NCBI GenBank assembly: GCA_034780895.1
Contig: JAUZTB010000076.1
Coordinates: 92,888,610 to 92,952,609 of the forward strand
DNA length: 64,000 nt
Reading direction: 5' to 3'
DNA from: Rhynchobatus australiae
Taxonomy: Eukaryota
Under the pieces are notes generated by a model. The model worked only from the letters and a program-made list of their open reading frames with translations. It was not told the DNA's origin and did no database searches. Each line of letters starts with the position of its first letter. Position 1 is the first letter of the stretch. A program made the translations under genes and the position numbers. Shown here piece by piece: positions 9,476-30,952 of this stretch.

Positions 9476-10718
9476 CTTCTTTTTATTTTGGGTGGGGGTG
9501 GTGCTACCTTACAGTTTTTGTTTTGTTTTGGGTGGGTAGGGGCTGGTGTGGTGATGTTTAGTGTATTTATAATCATAACTGTCATAGTGCCTCAGTATGG
9601 TTTAATGAACCTGCTTTTACGAAACAGACTGGTTCATGGTTCAGAAGGTAACGTCAATACCATTCCAGATGCTTTAAGCCAGATTCATTTGTTGACCGTC
9701 ATGGTTTGTATACAATCTGATGCTTATATCCCATTCAATATTCTAGCTACAGCTGGCAATTTCAAACAAACAAGCAATCTTGTACAGAAGGTTTTGTCAT
9801 AATTGGGTGTCTATCATCTTAAGGCACAGAACCATTGTTTAGCTATAAAGTTATGGGGTTTGTGTTAGAACTGAAGCACATTTCATCCACAGCTCCTTCC
9901 TTGGTGCAGAATTATTGGAAGTTCGTGTAGCTGGGTACCTTTTAAACAGTCAGGTTAAAATCTACAGGGCTAAATGAAAGGAAGAATGCAAGGGTACAGA
10001 AGAAACTAACTCTGTTGAAACATATGGACTTGTAAAGATCCAGGTTTGATCCAGGTAAAGATGGGGGAAAAAAAAACTGACCAGATTTTATACCTACATG
10101 ACTATCCAATAAACACCACTGGAGCACAAGCAAGGGCATAGCTGCAATAAAATGGGATGTCAACATTTACTGACATGACTTAAATGAAATCTGACCCTTA
10201 GGCAAGGTGCCAGAGGGCCGATATCTATGGAATCATTCTCCAAGCATAGAATTAATGCCTTTTTCAAGAAAGTGAAGGTTCAATAAACTGCAAAAAAATG
10301 TATGCAACTAGACATTTTTATGTTGTTAAGTTTGTATGCACTACAAGATAGAAAATTTGCTAATGACCAGATTCTTCATGTTATTTTCTCTTTTTCTTCA
10401 ATTTGCAAGGAAAACATGTGTTTGCAGTCCATTTATGGATCCTCTCTAAAGTAACAGTGAATTGTTAAAAGACAAAAAAATTGTTCAAGTAGTTAATCAA
10501 TTACAACTCTGTTAAACAAAGAGGAGAAATTTCTTTTCTGTTGTACATGCTAAATGCATGATTTGCTCACGGGTGTGCATTGCATTTCTTCAATTCAAGC
10601 AATTTTCTTAACTTCTGCAAACACATACAAGAGAGACTAAATCTCTTTCCCAGGCTCTCAAAAGGGCACTAATGTCCTTTTCAAGAGTATAATTCTCCTC
10701 ATTTTAAAAGTGATTTAC

Positions 10719-10864
10719 CTGAAGAGCTGTTCACCATATTAGATGCCATGTTGTAAGTAGTGGTCTGAGGGTTCATCATTAAAGAGCTGTTGTTCATTGG
10801 TTGACTGTAGGGAGAGCTAGAGCCCATCATACCACTTTGGTTCATGCCAGTGTATCCAGCTTGC
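10719..10864 (-). CDS. ARID1B: ARID1B internal coding exon, 146 nt: (G/R)[48 protein letters not shown]
   Basis: Acceptor ctttctttttttcag| and donor CAG|gtaaat on the minus strand. The peptide closely matches the recalled human ARID1B segment [48 protein letters not shown] upstream of the ARID domain, and matches it better than the ARID1A equivalent. Confidence 0.95.
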
Positions 10865-11869
10865 CTGAAAAAAAGAAAGCATACATGGTTGTTTGCATAA
10901 ACACGACACAAATATACCAAGAATGTAAAGCAAGAGACAAAAGTAGATATCTGACAGCAGTAGCATGCTCCGTGATCAGTAACGTGGGGGAAGACTCCAG
11001 GGCTGGAGACAGATGCTGGATTGAAAGCAACAGTGTGGAACACCAAAGAAGAGCAAGGATAAAGATAAAGAATGAAAAGAGGTCAAGTGTTAAGCAACAG
11101 CAAGCACAACACTAGAACAGCATTAGTTAAAACAAACCGATTCCCATTAAGCTGTCACACATCACTCAATATCATTGCCAGTTTTCAGGAACATTTACAC
11201 CACAGAATTACCAGAACCATTGCAAACTGCATGGGTTTGATTTTTAAAATCCTTTTTCTATTTATGTCCCAATATATTGTACTTTAATATTATGTTTGTG
11301 TATTTATTATAGTTATTCATGTGAAAATATTCTCTAAGGAACACAGAAAACTAATAACTTGAATGTCACCAACACTACGGTCAGTTATTGAACTGGATCA
11401 ATAGCACTTGCTAATATGGATGATGACTTGGTGCAAGCTTTATTTGTGGTTTTAATATATACTATAACCCTTTATAAAATTATAATCAACACATTTCACT
11501 GGAATCCCTGAAGGGAAGTGAAGAAATTCTCCAAGTTTAACCAACAGAATTAATATCAGCAAGAAGGGTTTGTTGTAAAATACCCAGTTGTAACAAACAA
11601 AAGGTGAACACATTAAGGAATATTTCACCCTGTATTTCCGGAATTTCAAGATAGTGGACCTATTCTAATTTTGGTTTCTTGTAGATTACTGATTAAGGAA
11701 TATGTGTTGCCTAAAGCTCATGCTGTTACTCGTTCATAAGAGCCATTTCTTTTACTTTATAAACAGATTTCTACAGAGGAAGCAGAAAAAGATACATCTT
11801 CCCTTTCAAGTTACTTTTAAAGTATTGATTCAAGGTCTATTCTCAAACACCATGCTGTGGAAGCTGTCA

Positions 11870-11914
11870 CTTCACCTCCAACTTACAATTCTTCACCTCC
11901 AACTTACAATTCTT
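11870..11914. repeat. 21-bp perfect tandem duplication (cttcacctccaacttacaatt x2)
   Basis: Seen directly. Confidence 0.9.
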
Positions 11915-13684
11915 AAATATTACAAACGTTATTAAATTATAGATCTTGCCAAAGTGGGCCAACCAGCAATGTTCAATGTCACAGAACCCAGAAAGTTCTA
12001 AGCTTTATTGGTGATCTGTGATGAAATTACTCATGTTCACCAGTTATGAGAGATAGAATGCTGCAGTTGTCCTCAGTATACCTGGACTATGAAAGAAGCA
12101 AATCAGGAGGGACATTGCCCAAAGATCCCTCCTGGAAAATGAAAAAAAAGTGTGCTTCAGGCAAGGTCAGGATCAAGATTAGCATTAATCCCTTTCAAAA
12201 TAAGAAAATCTGTAAAGACTCCCTGTTTAAACCATTAATAAAGAATGGCAATTAGAGAGAAAAACTACCAGAGTTGAAACATTCTGCAACTGGTACAGAT
12301 TAAAACCAGTGAATTCACTTTTACTGAGTCTTCCTACAAAGGAATCAGAATCACTCAAAGGAAAAAGGGCAAGATCTTAACTTTTTTCTACCAATGGAAG
12401 GTGTGTGACATAACCATAATGGAGTTATTGGCTAATCATAGAAATCTCCATTTAATCCACAATGGACCAGACATAAAACTACGAAAACCACGGTATAGAA
12501 AGCTTTGAAAGCTTGAACTTAGAAAAGCTCAAAATTACCTGCTTCTCCCAAACATGCATTATGTCTCAAGGTAGGGTATACTTTATTCCGAAATATAATT
12601 TGCATTTGTATAAATCAGTCTGTTTTCCTCTTCCCCCCAGGGACCGTGTTTCATAGGAATAATGTTTCCATACTGCAGACGTATTCAAAAATCATTAATG
12701 GTTTTGATAACGTAAATAAGGAGAAGCTCTCTAGTTGCAGAGTGGTCAGAAATAAGAGACAGAGCTAGCACAATTTGTACAAGAACCAGAGGCAACCCGA
12801 GGAAACATTTTAATATAATGCTTGAATGAATAGTGAAAGCTGATTCAATAATAACCTTACGAAGAGAATTTGATAAATATTTCAACAGAAACAAAGCTAT
12901 GATAGAGTATGGATGGAAGTACAGTTCAACTACAATGTAGGAATTTTACAGCCTTTGATCAGAGAAAGATTTTTAAAATATGAATTAGTTTCATTTTAAG
13001 CAGGNNNNNNNNNNNNNNNNNNNNNNNNNNNNNNNNNNNNNNNNNNNNNNNNNNNNNNNNNNNNNNNNNNNNNNNNNNNNNNNNNNNNNNNNNNNNNNNN
13101 NNNNTTAGTTTCATTTTAAGCAGGTTGTTTGCTGAATGAACTTAATTTGTTTTCACCAGTGTAAATAATAATCAACTCCTTCGCTTGTATTAATAATTAA
13201 ACAAATAACACATTACATCAAGTGTGTGAGAAACTGTGAAGAAATGGCTGCAGATGCACCCAACAAAAGTATTGAAGGAAGAATTGGTTCTGCTCAAGTA
13301 CGCTATCTGAATGCAGAGCTGCAGCTATTCCACTCATTAATTACAAATAATGTTGGGAAAGTGCCACAAGTTCACTATATTTTGCAATACCACAGAAAAA
13401 TTGAAATAAGTGAAAGCAATCACAACTGCTGCTCTGTACAATCACTTGAAGTGACATTAAGCTATTTAAAGATTTATCTTGCCAGGTGTTTGCTTGATTT
13501 TCCTTCAGAGATAATTAAGCAATACACATTCAAAAAACATAAATATACACAATGTCAAAATAGCTGGTTATATATATCCATGTTATTTTATTACCCACAT
13601 ACAGAAAATACTGAGATATAAGGCAGCACATGTCAACTCAGTTCAAGGAAAGGTATGAAACCTGGTGAAGAATATGTGACACTT

Positions 13685-13772
13685 TAGGCAAATGGAACTA
13701 GCTGAGGGGGGCAATTTGGTCAGCATGGACAAGTTGGACTGAAGGGCCTGTTTCAGTACTATATGATTCTAT
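13685..13772 (+). mobile_element. Isolated CR1/HER1-type 3' tail
   Basis: ggtcagcatggacaagttggactgaagggcctgtttcagtactatatgattcta. Confidence 0.7.
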
Positions 13773-15494
13773 AACCCTCCTGAGAAAGCACTCACTCCAT
13801 TTTACTAAGCAAAAGTGTAAGGCCTATTTAGAAAGGCAGCTATATTTAACTTCCATAAAGTGTGATGCATTTTAACAAAAAGAGAAAATAATACAGCTTA
13901 CGGCTTACTAAAATGTCACTTTGTCCAGATTATCCAAATTTTGGATTTTTTTAATCTAGCACCATAAACTGAGTAATATAANNNNNNNNNNNNNNNNNNN
14001 NNNNNNNNNNNNNNNNNNNNNNNNNNNNNNNNNNNNNNNNNNNNNNNNNNNNNNNNNNNNNNNNNNNNNNNNNNNNNNNNNCACCATAAACTGAGTAATA
14101 TAACCAGAAGAACACCAATGATTCGAGCAGAGTCCCAATAGTAGCTTCCCAGAACACCTATGGAAAGGCAGGAACTAACAGTCGCCCTGCTCTGTAGGAC
14201 TGATTTAAATACAGTGATAATTAAACTGATATTAACCATTGCTTTCTATGTGTCTTTGAGTCAGTCCCATGGTACAAAACTTCCATAGAACATAACAGCT
14301 GAATGACAGTGCTACCTATGTAGATTACCCAAATTACTTAGGTGTTTATTTGTACTACTACAGCTCACCTTTTTTTAAAATGAGAATTCATAAATGAACA
14401 GAATTAGGGAAATTAGTATCAATGATCTCAGCTCCAACATATCACATTTCCAAGAGAATTTTTTCCCAATTTCCATCAAAGAAACACACCTATTCTTAAC
14501 TGAATGGTTATTAAAAAGTGATGAGGATCAACAGGAAAGTTACTTTAGCTGTTTGCAATGTTGTTCACTGGTGCGAGACAGCAGCGTTTCACACACAATC
14601 TAATTCTCCTTCCTTTTGTATCTAGGAATTTTAAATCAACATTCAAGACTCGTAAGACGCAGTAAATCATAAAGTACTGGCTCACTTCCATATCTTTACT
14701 CTGGGGAGATCACCATGTGAAAGTGCACTATTAGTAGAATTTCATTTGCAAATGACTAGCAAGCAAAGATTCGTCAAATATAGCCGTGGGTAAGGTAGGC
14801 TGCAATAATTTTTAATTTTTTTTGGTTATGAATTGTCTTCCCCAAGTGGAACTTTTTGAATGATTTGAACATTAGGAGACAAGTCTAAGATGTTCAACTG
14901 CAAACTTTGATACTTCTGAGTTATTTGTCATTTCTAAAAGATCTTTTGGCCTAAGACATAAAACTCTTCATCGGATTTAAATAATCCCCATAAAATATGT
15001 CATTTGGATCTTCCAGGTCAGGGTCTACCAAAGATAAAAGGTATTCTTTAAACTGGTGTAAGTAGGTATTGACTGAAAATACAGATTATATAAATTAAAA
15101 CACACATAAAAGTTAACAAGCAGGCGTAGCAGCCAGAAAAATTACTCAGAGATAGTGCAACCCAAAACATCATTGCATTAACTATGAGCTGATGCAGGAT
15201 CTTGACCCAAAACATCAATAATTCTTCTCCCCCCCACAGATGCCCCCTTGATCTGCCGAGTTTCTTCAGTTTGTTTTTCGCACAAGAAATTGGCAGTCTT
15301 TTGACTCTTTCTCACATCTGTTCCGCCTTTTTTTGGGAGAAAAATGTCTGACCTGAGCCAAGGAGTTTTCCATACGGGGAAGTAGAGTGTGGGAACCTAC
15401 ATCCTAGCAAATGCAATAAAAGAATAAATGTGACACACTTCTGACACTGCACACGAAATGGCAGAAAATATTGTGATGATGTCCATTTAAAGAT

Positions 15495-15733
15495 AAGGCT
15501 GTAAGATATAGGAGAAAAATTAGGCCATACAGCCTATCGAGTCTGCTCTGCCATTCAATCATGGCTGATTTTCTTCTCAACCCCATTGTGCTACCTTCTC
15601 CCCACAGCTGTTAACCCCCTTACCAATCAAGAACCTTTCAATCTCTGCTCAGATTTACCACCATCTGGCTGAAAAAAACTTCCTCATCTCAGTTTTCAAA
15701 GGGATGTCCCTTTATTCTGAGGCTGTGCCCTCA
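15495..15733 (-). mobile_element. CR1 LINE 3' end
   Basis: Reverse complement of the tail gactcgataggctgtatggcctaattttt; matches the tail at 57020-57075. Confidence 0.75.
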
Positions 15734-15734
15734 A

Positions 15735-16825
15735 GAAGGGCTTAAAGCTGATAAATCTTCAGGACATAATGAACTGCATTCAAAACTTTGGTAAGTGGTG
15801 GTGAAGGAGACACTGGTTGTCATCTTGCAAAATTCTTAAGATACTATAATTGTTCCCACAGATTGGAAGAGCTGAATCCCACTATTTAAGAGGGAACTGT
15901 AGAACTGTTAGCCCAACAACAGTAACAGGGGAATGCTAAAACTTATTGTTAAGTATTTGGTGCAGGACATTTAGAACAAAAGGAATGGCCAGAGAGACTA
16001 CTTGGATTAATGAAAAAGAAATTAACTTTGACAAGTCTGTTAAAAGTTGCCTTGAGGTTTTAACCAGAAGAATACACTGGAGGGAACTAGCAGAACTGAG
16101 ATTATTGGCCTCTTAGAAGACCTTCAAAAAAGTATCACATAACAGATTTTTAAACAAAAGTAGAGCCCAAGAGAATATAGTGATGTGGATTGAGGATTGG
16201 TTAAGGAACAGAATACAAAATAGCAATAAACAGGTAATTTTCGGTTGAGAGACTGTCACTAGTGGGGTAACAAAGATATTAGTGCTGGGATCCAGCTGCT
16301 CAATTTGTGTCAATGATTTGGATGAGGGGATCAAGTGTAACATATCTAACTTTGCTGATGGTACAAAAGGTATGACGCAATGTGGGTTGTTAAGACATTA
16401 AGAGAGGCTTCAAGGAGATATAAATAGGCTAACTGAATGAGCAATGACATGGTAGATGGTATATCATGTGGAAAATTGTTGGCCTGGAAGGCCAGATGCA
16501 GGGACAATGCTTCCAATGGCTGGGATCTCTAGACAAGGCATGGGAGTCTTAAAAGCAAGGGGCTGCTCATTCAAAGCTGAATGGAGAAGAAATTCCTTCA
16601 ACTAGTGGGCACTGAACCTTTAGGATTCTCTATGCAGGATTACTGTGGATGCTCTGTCATTGAACAACAAAAATCAATAGAGTTTTATTTCTTAAAGGAT
16701 CCAAAGAATGTGGGATTGTTGTAGGAAAGTGGCATTGAGGTAAAAAAAATCAGCCATATTCTTACTAATTGGCAGGGCAGTGGTGAGACTCCAAATGGCC
16801 TACTCCTGCTTCTTTTTCTTACACT
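15735..16825 (+). mobile_element. Decayed CR1 LINE ORF2 (RT) to 3' tail
   Basis: Remnants of gtcactagtggggt..gtgctggga, aatgatttggatgaggg and tttgctgatggtacaaa (FADD-like); tail aaatggcctactcctgcttct. Confidence 0.8.
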
Positions 16826-18289
16826 TTATTTACCTGTCAATATATAATTTATAAATCCATTTTCTTTGCAGGCAAATGCATGTTGTTATGTTATATGCTG
16901 ACTTAATAATAATGAAAAGAGGGAAAACAAATCTCTATTATTAACACTAAAAATATTTTTGTATGGTTTGGATCCCAACAGTCCATGGTAGGAATAAATT
17001 TTGTTTTAAGTCATACATAAATGATACAGATAAAACTGTGAGGAATACTATTTAATGCATTATAATTCTGGCTGCATTTTACAACTGCTTGTGATGGGGG
17101 AAGAGTTAGATATTTTACAGCTCTTTGTTTCAAGATAGCACACCTAATTTCCTAAACCTATAATTGCCAACTTGCATTGGCAAACTTGATTAATAACCAA
17201 TTGGTAACACTGATAAAAACTTCAGATGACGCCCAGAAATTGACAAGCACCATTCTATGGCAGTCCATTTTACAAAAGGTGATTTACAGTAATGGTCAAT
17301 TGTCATTAGAAAAGTCTATTCATTAATATTTGAGATTTTTCTCAAAGCAGAATGCGAGATGTTGTAAGAAACACAAGATGGCAATAATAGCCTCCTCAAT
17401 TTTTCTGGTAATATAACTCAACTCAAAGAAACGTGGAAAAATAGGAGCCTGCAATTGAGTCCTTAAAACCTGCTTAACCATTCCATATGACCATGGCTAT
17501 TATCCACCTCAAAAGCATATTCCTGCTCTTACTGCATATCCCTTTAGATCATTAACAGGGAATTGGACCAACAGGCTTGCTTGATATAGAGCTAGAATGG
17601 ACTTGTTAGGCCAAATGGCCTCTTTCTGTGCCAAAATAATTTTATGATTCTAATGTGTACTCTTTTCAATTCTCTCCCCATTGATATTTCTTTTTACTTC
17701 TCAATCTTACAATTTTCAAAGCAATTTTTCTAGCTCTGACATTAATCTCAACATTCAGCTCAGTGGTACCTTACAAGTCCTACGAATACATGGATCTCTG
17801 ATGCTGGGCATCTGCAAAGAGGTCAGTGTAAGGGATTTTACACTAAGTCCTGCTAAATATGGGAATACTGTGCATCAGTTATGAAAAATTCATTAACAAT
17901 CAGTGATTAAATGTTGTTAGCAATCTTAAGAGCTACATGAGATGCGAAAGGAGCAACAAGTGGAATATCTCAAGTTTTGTTATGTACTTTCTATACACAG
18001 CAAACTACAAGGCTTAAAATTATAGATGGACAGCTCCAATTGTCTTTGAAAAATTGAGTATTTGGAACACTGATCTTTGCACAATGCTTAAATACAAATA
18101 GTTGACTCCGGTGTGTTGAAGGTGGGAATGGCTCCACTAATCATCAGCTGATTCAACTTATTTTCAATCACAGAAAAAGCTTTGAAGCAATACTCATGGA
18201 AAAGCTCCAATTATCCATACAACACCTATAATGTGTAGCTTATCTCATCACCAGATTTCTAATTGGCTAACCACAACTGCAACAGCATG

Positions 18290-19230
18290 AAAAAAAAAGT
18301 TCCAGGTTATAGAAAGATATTAATGGATTGCTTAGGTGGACACTAAAGTGACAAATGGAATTCAACCTGGAGAACTGTAAAGTTATACATTGCAATCAAG
18401 CCAAGGAAAATGACAACAAATGGTGTGATACTCCAAAATGTAGAGGAATAGGCAAATTTGGAATGCACGCCCACAAGTCCCTGAAGGCAACACCACAAGC
18501 AGTTAAGGTGGCAAACCATAGCTGAGGCTTGCTTGTACTCTCAGCAAGGAAATCATGTTCGAACTGTATGATACATCTGCTAGGCCACAGCTGAAATATT
18601 ATAAACAATTATGGTCTTAAAACTATAGGCAGGATATGATAACACTAGAGAGGTTGCAGAGGAGACCTAGGAGGATATTGGCCAAGGCTGGAGAATTTTG
18701 ATTGGAGAAGCAACGGTCTAATTTTGAGCATTTATTCTTTGGGACAAAGAAGACTGAAAAGAGATTAAGTGGAGATGTATTAAACTATGAGGCATCTACA
18801 GAAGATGAACAGTGAGAAAGCATTTTTCTTTGCAGAGAAATTATTAACTAGAGGGTACTAATTTAATTAGGACGTTAAGGGGTGACTTGAGAAAAAAAAT
18901 TCTTTCATTCATGTGTGGTTGGTGTCTGGAACTCACTGCCTGAAAGGGTGGTGCAAGTAGAGACCATCACCCGATTGAATAATTGGTATTGGTTTATTAT
19001 AGTCACCTGTACCGAAGTACAGTGAAAAACTTGTCTTGCATACCGATCGTACAGGTCAATTCATTACACAGTGTAGTTACACTGGGTTAGTACAGAGGGC
19101 ATTGGATGAGCAGTTAGCAGGGTTATGAGCTAAATGCTGGAAATTCAAACTCATCTCCAGTCTATTCTTGGGTGGCATGGATAAAATGGATTGAATACTT
19201 TCCTTCTGTGCCACAAATGATGATTTCATG
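18290..19230 (+). mobile_element. Decayed CR1 LINE 3' part carrying a nested opposite-strand LINE tail
   Basis: caaatggaattcaacctggagaactgt (QMEFN..C), gagaggttgcagaggaga, tctggaactcactgcctgaaagggtggtg. Confidence 0.75.
18982..19103 (-). mobile_element. 5'-truncated LINE tail (same family as 5858-6155) nested in CR1
   Basis: ggtttattatagtcacctgtaccgaagtacagtgaaaaacttgtcttgcat is nearly identical to 5862-5913. Confidence 0.75.
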
Positions 19231-20114
19231 AACTGCAATGGCAACAATCACTGCAAGGTCAGTAAAGACTGATAACACCACCTACGGCATCCAAAGACAT
19301 GTGCCAGTAATGTTAAAAATTAAATGAATTTCTGATCACATCATGTTCCCTCCTCCTTTCAAGTAATCTTGTTCAGAATTGTAACAAAGAGATTAGGAGA
19401 GAAACATGGGCTAACTGATTCAGTTCCAAATTCCGGATCTAGCAGCAACACAGAAAATTTATCAATCATAAACCAAAAGGGCCAAGGTATGTGGAGAGTA
19501 AAGTAATAGTGCAGAAGTGAAGACCACCCAAAAATACTGAGATCTCTGAGACATGGATTTCTTCTTTCCTAAAAATCAGCTACTGTCAGGCATCACTGTT
19601 AGGGAAGCCTTGGCATTCTGCAACATGATGTCTTTGTGGAAAACGAACAGCCAATCAAATTAAAGATTCTCAGGGACAGAAAAGCAAGTAATAAAATAAC
19701 TTTTAGACATTTTACAAACCACAAAATAGACATCAGATTAACAATGCTGAAATATCAAACTTTAAAACAGCACAGAATTTTGAAATATTTATGTGAAGGA
19801 GTGACAACCTGCACAGATAAAATTTGCTTCCTTAGAGTCAGAAGGATTGTGAAGCAGTATTATAAACTCAATTATGCCTCATTTACAAGGTATAATACTG
19901 CAGGATTATTTTGGATCGAGTTTAAACTTCTCAACAGTGCACCTTGTGGAAGACTGGGGAATTGCTCTCAGCAACCTCTGAATTTTTTTATATATTTGCA
20001 AAATCTGGGCTAACAAAAATGTCTCTAATCACTCCCAAAAAGAATCGGAGGCAGTGTTTGCATGGGACAAGCAGGTTCAAGGGCTCATTCAGGCATAGCT
20101 TCAACACCACTCAC

Positions 20115-20196
20115 CCGTGGAATGGCGGAAGATGCACAAACTCTCCTCTGACCAGGGTCCTTTACTCAGCCCCTTAGCCAGAGTAAGGAGACCAAT
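20115..20196 (-). other. Candidate 82-nt poison (PTC/frameshift) cassette exon of ARID1B
   Basis: Acceptor ttatttttttttcccctacag| and consensus donor CGG|gtgagt in non-repetitive sequence. In the ARID1B phase it reads A TTG GTC TCC TTA CTC TGG CTA AGG GGC TGA (stop), and 82 is not a multiple of 3. Confidence 0.6.
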
Positions 20197-22499
20197 CTGT
20201 AGGGGAAAAAAAAATAACCTTCAGTGGTCCAAGCCACTTGAGAGGCACACAGCACATTCGCCCACCTGATGGTGTGTGGAACTACCACCACTTAATGATC
20301 ATTTGGTTTGCATTTGCATTGTTAATCAGGAAACTTGCAGTTATGGTTAACTGGCTTCTGTTTTCCTGGGGCTTGTGTGTGTTGCCCACTGGTGTAATGG
20401 CAGGAGAATGATGGAGTCCTACCTACAAAAGCAAATTCAGGAGACAGGGACTTCAAACGTTCAGTTTAGGCAAAATATTTTAAAGAACTTTAAATTCAAG
20501 CACTGGCTAATACATGCACATTTGATAGGAATGGAATATTTTTTTAAAAATGCATCTGAACAGGAGTCATTGTTAATGCATTGAGAAATCAACATTTAAA
20601 GGTCAGCACATTTACAAGCAAAGTTGGCCATGCTGCAGGCTTCCAGTGTGCTATTTTAAGGAGCTTAAGCTAAATGGATGATGTGACAGCAGAAACCTGC
20701 ATCGATACAGTACCTTTAATATATTATATAAGGTCCAAGATCTATCACAGAAACCTTATCAAACAAAATCTGAACACCAAGCCATGTATTTAACACAGGT
20801 GTCCGAAAGCTTGGTCAAATACCAGGGAGAGAAGTAGAATCTATGATGAGGGAACAGAGTTCGTGGTCAAGACTAAAGGCAATGTCTCATGACTTCCAAA
20901 TATTGAGTTCCAGGAAATTTCTGTTTGTCGAGCTACAGATGTCTGATGAGCAATCTGCCAATGTACAGACAGTAGAGGGCTCATGTAATGTGGTGAACTT
21001 TTTTCCAAAGACTGCACACTGACAAGAGTATAAGAGATCTCTACGCTCCATGGTCACTGTCACATAACACAAAAGCTGTTTTGTAAATTGACATCAATTA
21101 GTAAGAGTTAATCCAATTAACATACCTATCATCTTCAAGGGACAAATGTAATACAAGAGACAACCTGCAGTGTGTCCACAGGAAACCAGAAATATGAAGT
21201 TACTGAGTATTCTCAAAGGAATATATGCAGTTAATCTGCACAAAATATATGATTCTGTGTAAACTGGATATCATGATTCTGTAAAAGTCATTAAATAATT
21301 TAAATGAGAATGCAGTAACAATAAGCTTCAAATTTAAATGTAACGGATTTAAATTTTCTATATNNNNNNNNNNTTCATTTTGTTAAGAGCCAGATAAAGC
21401 TGTAATCATTAACTGATGCTGGCAGAGGTGGTTTTTTTTCCCCTTTGACATTTAAGTGCAATGTATGCATTTATTTTATCATTCCCAGCAACCTTCAGCC
21501 CATCATTACCACTTCACTGCCAGGGCTTCTGAGAAAATAAGAGGGCACGAAGTGCTTTGCTGGCACTATCAACCGGAGTATGAATTATATATAAGCAGCC
21601 AGCTTTAAAACAATACTTTCATAAGCAATCTGTGATCCTTGGAGAACTTCAAAAGATGATAAAAATTCTACTGAAAATTGCCCTAAAAGGCCATAAATGA
21701 AACATTACTGAATTTTTTCCCCTCATTAACCCTGTACTGCTGAGGTCAGTTCATGAAAACAAGATAGTTCATTCAGTCCAACAGAGATAAAGGTTTTGTT
21801 GCATCCTGTGGCTGAAAACTCTTCTTTGCTCCAAATGCGTTTTACCCAAGAGACTATTTTTATAAGTTATGGCCTCTAGATATTATTGAACAAAGCAGAC
21901 AGGGAAAAAGTAAAAAGGTTCCCATGATGTGCCTTGTTTTCATAAATCTGTGTTAAAAACAAGCTTCAAACCCATACTCTATTCCTATTTCTGCACTTTG
22001 AGCCTGAACTTGCACATTTAACTACATTTATTTTTGCTTTATTTCATTTTAGAAAATTTACATTGTGCCAATATTACATAGTGGAATATTTTTTTGCAAA
22101 ACAAAATAGCAGAACTGGAAAGATGAACAAGTGCAATGAACGTCAAATGAATTTTGTTGCTCTGCCAATGACCCAGTCAATTTATTATTCCACAAGTAGC
22201 AGAATATCACAGGCAAGGAAAATCCAAACGTTGATCTGTTATCAGAATTATGTTATGTCATTGCAACTCTAGCAGTGCAGAGGCCCTAATACTGATATTA
22301 TGCCCTTAAGGAGAAGAAAAAAAGAACTGAAGTATCTTTGGATGAGGCCTGAACAAGGTCCTCTGTAGGCAAATGATTTGTCCTTACTCTTAAGATTCAT
22401 CCATATTTGAGGATGAAGGAAACATACAGGGATTTAAAAGGTGCAATGGTCAGATGGAGAGGCACAAGCATCTGGAGGAGAAAAAGTCCAATAAGCAGA

Positions 22500-24840
22500 A
22501 CAAGCAAGTAAATAAACATCAAAGGAGTTCAAAGTTAAATTGTGTCTATTGTAATGCAAGGAGTATAATTAGTAAATTAGATGAACTCAAAACTTTAATT
22601 AACATGGTGGTCTACGATATTGTTGCCATTGTTGAAACATTGTTAAACGATGGGCAGGACTGGCAACTCCATATCACAAGGTATAGAACTTTCAGGAGCA
22701 ACAGAGGTGGGAGTAAAAGGGGAGAACGTATTGCACTGTTAGTTGAAGATTTCGTTACTTCAGCATTGAGAGAGGATATCATAGAACAAGGCCATGGGTA
22801 GAGATTAGAAGCAAAAATGGTGTCATCACCTTGTTGGGGGTGTCTTACAGACTTCTCAATAGTCAACAGGAGCTAGAGGAACTGATACAGAGGCAAATAT
22901 CAGATAGATGCAATAACAATTGGACAATTGGGTTGTCATACTGTTGGATTTCAAATTTCCCAAATATTAACTGGGATTACCTTCTTACTGTCAAAGGCTC
23001 AGAGGGGACAGACTTTGAGGTGTGTCCAGCACTGCAGTACATAGCAAAACCAACAAGGAAAGAAGCATTACTGAACCTTATTTTGGGGGATATGGCTGGC
23101 CAAGTGGAAGGAATGTCAGAAGGGAAACATTTTGGAGATGGTGACTATAACTCTGTATATTTTAGTGGTTATGGAAAAGGATAGAGATGGACCAGCAATA
23201 AAGGTCTTAAACTGGATTAAGACCAATTTCATAAGGGAGGACCTGGCAAAGGCAGACTGGGAGTATCTACTTGCAGCTAAGTCTACATCTGCACAGTGGG
23301 AAGCATTCAAAGGAGAAACAGCAGAAGTTCAGGATCAAAGCTAATGGAAAAGCCAGGTGTAACAAGTAGAGGGAACTCTGGATGTTGAGGGATATTGAGG
23401 TTTGGATAAAGAATGAAAAGAAAGCATATCATAGGTATATGGAACTAACGACAGGGGAGACCTGCTAAGGGTATAAAAGTATAGGGAAGGTGCTTGAGGA
23501 GGAAATTAGGAAGGCAAAGAAGGATCTCGAGAAATCATTGGCAGACAGGATTGAGGTAAATCTGAAGGCATTATGCAAGTACATTAAAGCAACAGAATAA
23601 CCAGAAAAATAGGGCCCATTAGGCACAATCTGTGTGGGGAGCCAGAAGGTACATGTAAGGTCTTAAATTAATACTTTTCATTGGTATTCACAAAGGAAAC
23701 AGACTTGGTGAACTGGAAAATTCAGTGGAGGATAGGTGAAAAGTTCAGTGCAGATCTCCATAAAGAAATTCTTGATGCCTTGGCAGGCTTAAGTGTGGAT
23801 AAATCCCTAGGACCAGATGGGATTTATCCCAAAGTTGCTGCAGGGGGCAAGGGAAAAGATTGCTGGAGCTCTGTCTGAGATTTTTAAATCTTTGCTGGAC
23901 ATGAGGTATAACTGGAGGACAGCAAACATGGTCCCCCTTTTCAAGAAAGGCAGCAGGAAAATGCCTGGTTACTATACATCTCTGAGCCTAACATCAGTGG
24001 TAGAGAACATACTGGAAAAAATTCTGAGGGAGAGGATTAATGATCACTGGGAAAGGCAGGAACTAATCAGAGACACCCAACATGGATTTGTCAAGGGCAG
24101 ATCCTGTCTGACCGAATTATGAAGAGTTAATAAAGTGTACTGGGCAGTAGTGTAATTTACATGGACTTTAGTAATGCCCTCGACAAGGTCCTGTATGGGA
24201 GACTGGCTCAAACGGTTGGGGCCCAGGGAATCCAGAGCAAGTTGACAAACTGGATCCTAAATTGGCTTGGCAATAGGAGACTAAGGGTGATGGTGGAGGG
24301 TTGCAGACAACATAGTTAGGAAGGCATATGGGATACTGGCTTTCATTAGTTGAAGCACTGAGTAACCTTATAAATCCTTGGTCAGACCTCAGCCAGAGCA
24401 CTGTATGCAGTCTGGGTCACCAAGGTATGTTACGGTGCTGGAGAGGGTGCAGATGAGATTCATGAGGATGAAGTGTTTCAGTTATGAGGAAAGATTGGAG
24501 AACTAGGTTTGTTCTCCCTGAAGTGGAGGAGGTTAAGAGGGGACATGACTGAGGTATATAAAATGACAGGTATAGATAGAGTAGATTGTAGGAATCTTTT
24601 CCCTGTATCAGAGATAGATAAAACTAGAGGACATAGGTTTATCATAAGGGGGGGAGGGGAGGGTGGGAAGAGATTTAGGGGATATATTGGGGGAATCTTC
24701 ATAATCCAGAGAGTAGTCAGTACTTGGAATGCACTGCCTGACAAAGTGGCTGAAGCTGGGTCATTGACAGCAATTGAAGAAGTGTTGAGATCAGCACTTG
24801 AATCCCTTTGGCATAGGCTGCTGGGTGATGGGATTGATAT
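22500..24840 (+). mobile_element. Long CR1 LINE ORF2 pseudo-copy (APE endonuclease, RT N-part, 3' end) with frameshifts and an internal deletion
   Basis: APE start LNCVYCNARSIISKLDEL..YDIVAIVETLL; NFPNINW; PTRKEALLNLILG; DKSLGPDGIYP; WRTANMVPLFKKG; QHGFVKGRSCLT; FSLKWRRLRGD; KTRGH; WNALP. Confidence 0.95.
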
Positions 24841-30823: not shown

Positions 30824-30952
30824 CCGTACTGGTCAGGCTGGTACATCAAGGGAGCCTGAGTGTTGCCATAGTTGGGATGTTGTGGTGGAAACACAGGACG
30901 TCCACCAGGCCCAGTCTGACTGGGATAACCAGGCGACCTAATGTACGGTGGC
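30824..30952 (-). CDS. ARID1B: ARID1B 129-nt frame-symmetric (cassette-type) coding exon: (R)PPYIRSPGYPSQTGPGGRPVFPPQHPNYGNTQAPLMYQPDQY(G)
   Basis: Acceptor atttctttcccaatttag|G and donor CGG|gtaggt. The reading frame is open with phase 2 at both ends and joins in frame to the 146-nt exon (GG+G). Pro/Gln/Tyr/Gly-rich composition fits ARID1 low-complexity regions, and codon-like GC stands out against AT-rich intron. Not in the supplied ORF track. Confidence 0.85.

Follow-up and report, generated by a model that had tools for sequence, protein, structure and literature searches.

A candidate 82-nt cryptic exon with strong splice sites in a long ARID1B intron of Rhynchobatus australiae

The window, that is the whole stretch of 64,000 nt of Rhynchobatus australiae DNA analysed here, carries on its minus strand two coding exons of ARID1B of 129 nt and 146 nt, which are separated by an intron of 19,959 nt (30823-10865). 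Within this intron a candidate exon of 82 nt lies 10,627 nt from the 5' end and 9,250 nt from the 3' end (Table 1), in agreement with the initial annotation, which had placed a possible poison exon about midway in a ~20-kb intron. The assignment of the gene to ARID1B and the eligibility of the candidate for nonsense-mediated decay (NMD), both claimed at the same time, are borne out by the whale-shark matches and by the number of exons downstream. The peptide of the 129-nt exon matches two of the three candidate proteins, both of them whale-shark 'ARID1B-like' isoforms, with 95%, and both of these models splice the 129-nt exon straight onto the 146-nt exon. With whale-shark ARID1B-like as the query, the better-matching locus is found on the contig of the window (C76, 77-98%), while a second contig (C68) holds the ARID1A-like paralogue. 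Downstream of the candidate, shark ARID1B possesses at least ten more exons. A protein search of the own genome, which on C76 extended to 170 kb beyond the window, did not recover the two ARID1B exons that precede the 129-nt exon; they are perhaps hidden in stretches of N, or lie further away.

The exons on both sides of the intron had been described as coding exons. Coding they are, with the refinement that the upstream 129-nt exon is itself a frame-preserving cassette in human, where its counterpart is given as ORF-preserving in rows of the PMC13078869 supplement. Both this shark and the whale-shark models have this symmetric exon (30952-30824, minus strand), and its occurrence in shark, whale shark and human dates the alternative coding exon to early jawed vertebrates. 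No tblastn match to it was found in the matching intron of the shark ARID1A-like gene.

Table 1. Features of the ARID1B intron and its flanking exons (positions in the window).
Feature	Position	Strand	Remarks
ARID1B coding exon, 129 nt, phase 2-2	30824..30952	-	counterpart of the human ORF-preserving cassette chr6:157150724-157150853
Strong 3' splice site	20197..20216	-	T9-C4 pyrimidine tract and CAG (crude matrix of approximate frequencies)
Candidate cryptic/poison exon	20115..20196	-	82 nt, frameshifting; T9-C4-TACAG acceptor, CGG/GTGAGT donor
In-frame TGA after phase-2 upstream exon	20166..20168	-	51 nt before the 3' end of the candidate
Strong 5' splice site CGG/GTGAGT	20109..20117	-	read from the sequence, matrix-scored
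ARID1B coding exon, 146 nt	10719..10864	-	counterpart of human chr6:157167040-157167185; expressed in three RNA runs of a relative

Canonical and competent 3' and 5' splice sites are present at the candidate on the sense strand of the intron, and the near-ideal acceptor and donor 82 nt apart that had first drawn attention to the site are confirmed at 20196-20115. The acceptor ends at 20197, and the branch-point-like CTGAA at its position -25 is weak. Once the 82-nt exon is included after a phase-2 exon, the 10th full codon is a premature TGA (20168-20166), and inclusion also shifts the frame, 82 not being divisible by 3; the phase of the upstream exon, the place of the stop and the frameshift were recomputed and all hold as originally predicted. 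In the paralogue, the exon that precedes the 129-nt exon ends in the same phase, so that the stop should arise with either upstream exon. NMD requires that a stop sits 50-55 nt or more upstream of a later junction, and because so many exons lie downstream of the candidate, its premature stop would, on inclusion, be located more than this distance upstream of a later junction. A coding role of the 82-nt exon was rejected: the frame that runs on into that of the 146-nt exon is interrupted by two stops, and no ATG follows them. Likewise, a rescue of the frame by joining the exon to a 157-nt neighbour was rejected: the joined products of 239 or 308 nt do not restore it.

The bin 20101-20200, which approximates the candidate, has a G+C content of about 53%, compared to about 37% window-wide and to 26-48% in the fourteen remaining 100-nt bins between 19501 and 21000. 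When 19900-20600 was searched against the whole genome at the DNA level, with very common words skipped, it recovered itself and one match of 33 nt outside the exon, and no repeat match over the candidate was found in 329 kb of sequence. The description of the site as unique, non-transposon sequence therefore stands, and an origin of the exon from a transposon was rejected on the same grounds, with the qualification that repeats of great age or high abundance could escape such searches. The 33-nt match is perfect, links 20551-20519, which lies some 320 nt upstream of the candidate, to another contig (C87) and may be a decayed repeat. Elsewhere the intron holds short interspersed repeat pieces (13687-13778, 15493-16470, 18981-19104 and 23988-24741), some of which are very abundant in the RNA and DNA of relatives. 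An Rfam scan of 18000-22500 returned zero matches at E<=1, and the RNA fold of 20080-20330 is nothing unusual (z -0.34). The RBFOX motif TGCATG is absent within 300 nt of the candidate exon, the nearest copy being at 20518, and no similarity to the candidate was detected in the corresponding intron of the paralogue ARID1A.

Splice-site strength was scored with matrices built from approximate vertebrate frequencies, which are crude and not equivalent to MaxEntScan. By these acceptor and donor matrices the candidate attains 9.7 + 7.2 bits, a sum above that of 20 of the 21 real ARID1A/B exons, with one of the 21 scoring as high. It is also the best acceptor-donor pair by summed score on both strands of 218,409 non-N bases, in which the minus strand has a single pair at or above this sum (the candidate) and the plus strand has none. 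Pairs that come within 2 bits of the candidate at both sites number two on the minus strand, the candidate included, and three on the plus strand of the same 218 kb. If independence is assumed, pairs this strong are expected by chance at 0.12-0.18 per 64-kb strand, which corresponds to 0.04-0.06 per 20-kb intron and to 0.4-0.6 per 218 kb, and given the rate per 64-kb strand the candidate, though uncommon, is nothing exceptional in the scan of a whole genome. The next-strongest pair of the window on the gene strand (56242-56079, minus strand) encloses 164 nt with one open frame, in which no ARID1B similarity was found.

The use of the candidate was assessed in four of 24 listed runs, namely three RNA runs of one relative (18-24% of each) and one contig set, mapped to 10600-21000; the mapping is dominated by repeats and the coverage of ARID1B is thin. 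The 24 runs include no NMD-inhibited shark RNA, and none of the 19 runs that contain the stretch is registered as RNA, which speaks neither for nor against its use. The 146-nt exon has a mean depth of approximately 7, 3 and 8 in the three runs, and full inclusion of the candidate would give 1.7, 0.7 and 2.0 in the bin that holds it, against observed depths of 0.03, 0 and 0.6. Summed over these three thin runs, the observed depth is at most about 14% of the full-inclusion expectation, and the value of 0.6 equals the intronic background in four other bins of the same run (0.6-0.8). No 20115-10864 joint is among the joints listed for the three thin runs, for which at least three reads per joint were required, and the contig set contains no contig over the bin of the candidate. 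Word sharing amounts to 0.04 in five runs, four of one organism and one of another, and to 0.15 in three runs of two further organisms; it refers to the 901 nt of 19800-20700 and not to the exon, on which it is uninformative. A major exon at 20115-20196 is excluded in the three RNA libraries of the relative, and skipping is the main outcome both in its RNA and in the whale-shark models. RNA depth cannot tell a silent pseudoexon apart from a poison exon whose product is degraded, since transcripts that include it are removed by NMD and the depth of the 146-nt exon is itself only about 3-8.

Human ARID1B contains an exon with which the candidate can be compared. For the coordinates of that exon we take SCN1A exon 20N to be 64 nt long, and its interval 166007230-166007293 has this length if both end positions are counted. 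The TANGO list of Lim et al. 2020 (PMC7347940 Supplementary Data 2), whose coordinates are accordingly inclusive, gives one ARID1B event (EI_NMD, chr6:157164639-157164748), which is therefore an exon of 110 nt. In Table S2 of Mironov et al. 2023 (PMC10123112) the same human exon is a GENCODE-annotated poison exon with 'PTC within', spliced between hg19 157471987 and 157488174. The first of these positions is where the 129-nt exon ends and the second where the 146-nt exon begins, and the 110-nt exon lies 2,291 nt before the 146-nt exon in an intron of 16,186 nt. The idea of an ARID1B poison exon is thus not new for human, where this exon is already catalogued, and by the same token the splice-switching idea is already in print. 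The supposition that a human counterpart exists holds for the position between the same two exons, and fails for the length and for the site within the intron.

The human exon and the shark candidate have in common the gene, the flanking 129-nt and 146-nt exons, the frameshift, the internal stop and, as is expected of orthologues, the intron. They differ in length (110 nt versus 82 nt), in the distance before the 146-nt exon (2.3 kb versus 9.25 kb) and in the position along the intron (85% versus 53%). Furthermore, the annotation of the human exon derives from transcripts, whereas the shark candidate is known from genomic signals, and the homology is putative. A 110-nt form in the shark was rejected, since there is no AG or GT to yield it, and neither the length nor the boundaries match the human exon. 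In the tables of mouse-human conserved poison exons of Felker et al. (five supplementary files, PMC9882217), a list that requires splice sites conserved between the two species, ARID1B has no match. The same is true of 12 of the 13 supplementary files of PMC11188260 and of one supplementary file of PMC11632617, which may not be the file with the exon list. At least four human ARID1B events are given in the PMC13078869 supplements, all those listed being non-NMD. The passages available from a 2026 review treat ARID1B only under NMD of mutant alleles (PMC13542418), and Coffin-Siris syndrome is named as a potential antisense target (PMC12096787). Among the papers listed in the literature searches, none has a poison exon of ARID1B, or one of sharks, as its subject.

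Pseudoexons and cryptic exons in long vertebrate introns can possess good splice sites without detectable inclusion in ordinary RNA-seq. The shark candidate departs from such silent pseudoexons in that most real exons of the gene have weaker sites, an unusual situation for a pseudoexon that is silent. With SCN1A exon 20N and the poison exons of chromatin regulators (PMC7347940), the candidate shares an intronic location, a non-coding nature, strong sites, a stop that lies over 50 nt ahead of later junctions and a dosage-sensitive host; those exons, however, are shown to be included and NMD-sensitive and are often highly conserved, whereas the shark candidate is a prediction. It would work like an exon of alternative splicing coupled to NMD (AS-NMD) and is, at best, one more of a known kind.

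On balance, we consider it probable that the 82-nt stretch is a cryptic exon which splicing as a rule passes over, with at most some leakage. Its strong splice signals probably arose by chance in the long ARID1B intron of this shark, and an occasional inclusion would deliver the transcript to NMD as splicing noise and not as a tuned switch; the rare inclusion, the decay of the product and the absence of regulation are all parts of what we infer. The cryptic exon is favoured since pairs of this kind turn up fairly often by chance and nothing points to use or conservation. On the one hand, this explanation is supported by the three antisense pairs within 2 bits in the same 218 kb, by an RNA depth in the bin of the candidate that does not exceed that of unique intronic bins in any of the three runs of the relative, by the whale-shark joins from the 129-nt to the 146-nt exon, by the mismatch in length and position with the human exon, by the absence from the list of Felker et al. 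and by the lack of an ARID1A counterpart. On the other hand, the candidate is the best pair in 218 kb, its rise in G+C is typical of exons, and in human a poison exon is annotated between the two corresponding exons. In addition, selection might be expected to remove a strong but silent site from a dosage-sensitive gene unless the site is useful.

Alternatively, sharks (the cartilaginous-fish lineage) may use the candidate as a regulated poison exon, which would be included in some tissues or stages and lower ARID1B via NMD, the human 110-nt exon then being an independent gain. We regard this as a serious, though less probable, alternative. An exon of this kind is consistent with the exceptional strength of the splice sites, with the rise in G+C in single-copy sequence, with the geometry of the premature stop and with the parallel poison exon in the same human intron, and a class of intronic cryptic poison exons that are conserved has been documented (PMC11632617). 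Nevertheless, the thin RNA data have no junction among those listed, the chance expectation is not small, and neither an RNA structure signal (z -0.34) nor an RBFOX TGCATG within 300 nt accompanies the exon.

The initial annotation went further and suggested that the exon is ancient as well as used and regulated. None of this is supported by the thin RNA data, in which no such junction is listed, by the human exon, which differs in length and position, or by the mouse-human list, which has no row for the gene. An ancient jawed-vertebrate poison exon, homologous to human hg38 chr6:157164639-157164748 with shifted boundaries, would make the shark and human exons one element since the shark-human ancestor and an old, conserved AS-NMD switch that sets the dosage of a haploinsufficient BAF subunit; we regard this as quite improbable. 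Against the differences of 82 versus 110 nt and of 53% versus 85% along the intron, and the want of a 110-nt form in the shark, stand the same intron and flanking junctions and the fact that both exons shift the frame and contain a stop (human 'PTC within'). Moreover, ARID1B is absent from the mouse-human list (PMC9882217) and from the searched supplements of PMC11188260 (12 of 13 files), and Lim et al. (PMC7347940) put the share of highly conserved exons, at the level of coding sequence, at about 16% of the human NMD inclusion exons. The least probable explanation takes the G+C-richer block 20100-20450 for an element of another kind within the intron, either an enhancer or a site of recursive splicing, to which the signals of the 82-nt exon would be incidental: a second pair of median real-exon strength (20422-20266, minus strand, 157 nt) lies 69 nt upstream of the candidate, and its acceptor at 20422 directly precedes GTAGG (TAG/GTAGG) like a recursive-splicing site, but pairs of that strength number 20 sense and 26 antisense in 218 kb.

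What the finding means for ARID1B differs between these explanations. If the 82-nt stretch is merely cryptic, as we consider probable, the shark exon is ordinary, and if it is used and regulated, it would add a further case to the poison exons of chromatin regulators, a class already known. Were it homologous to the human 110-nt exon, an annotated and apparently uncharacterised human event would become a deeply conserved switch, and the human exon would gain support as an antisense (splice-switching) target for Coffin-Siris syndrome.
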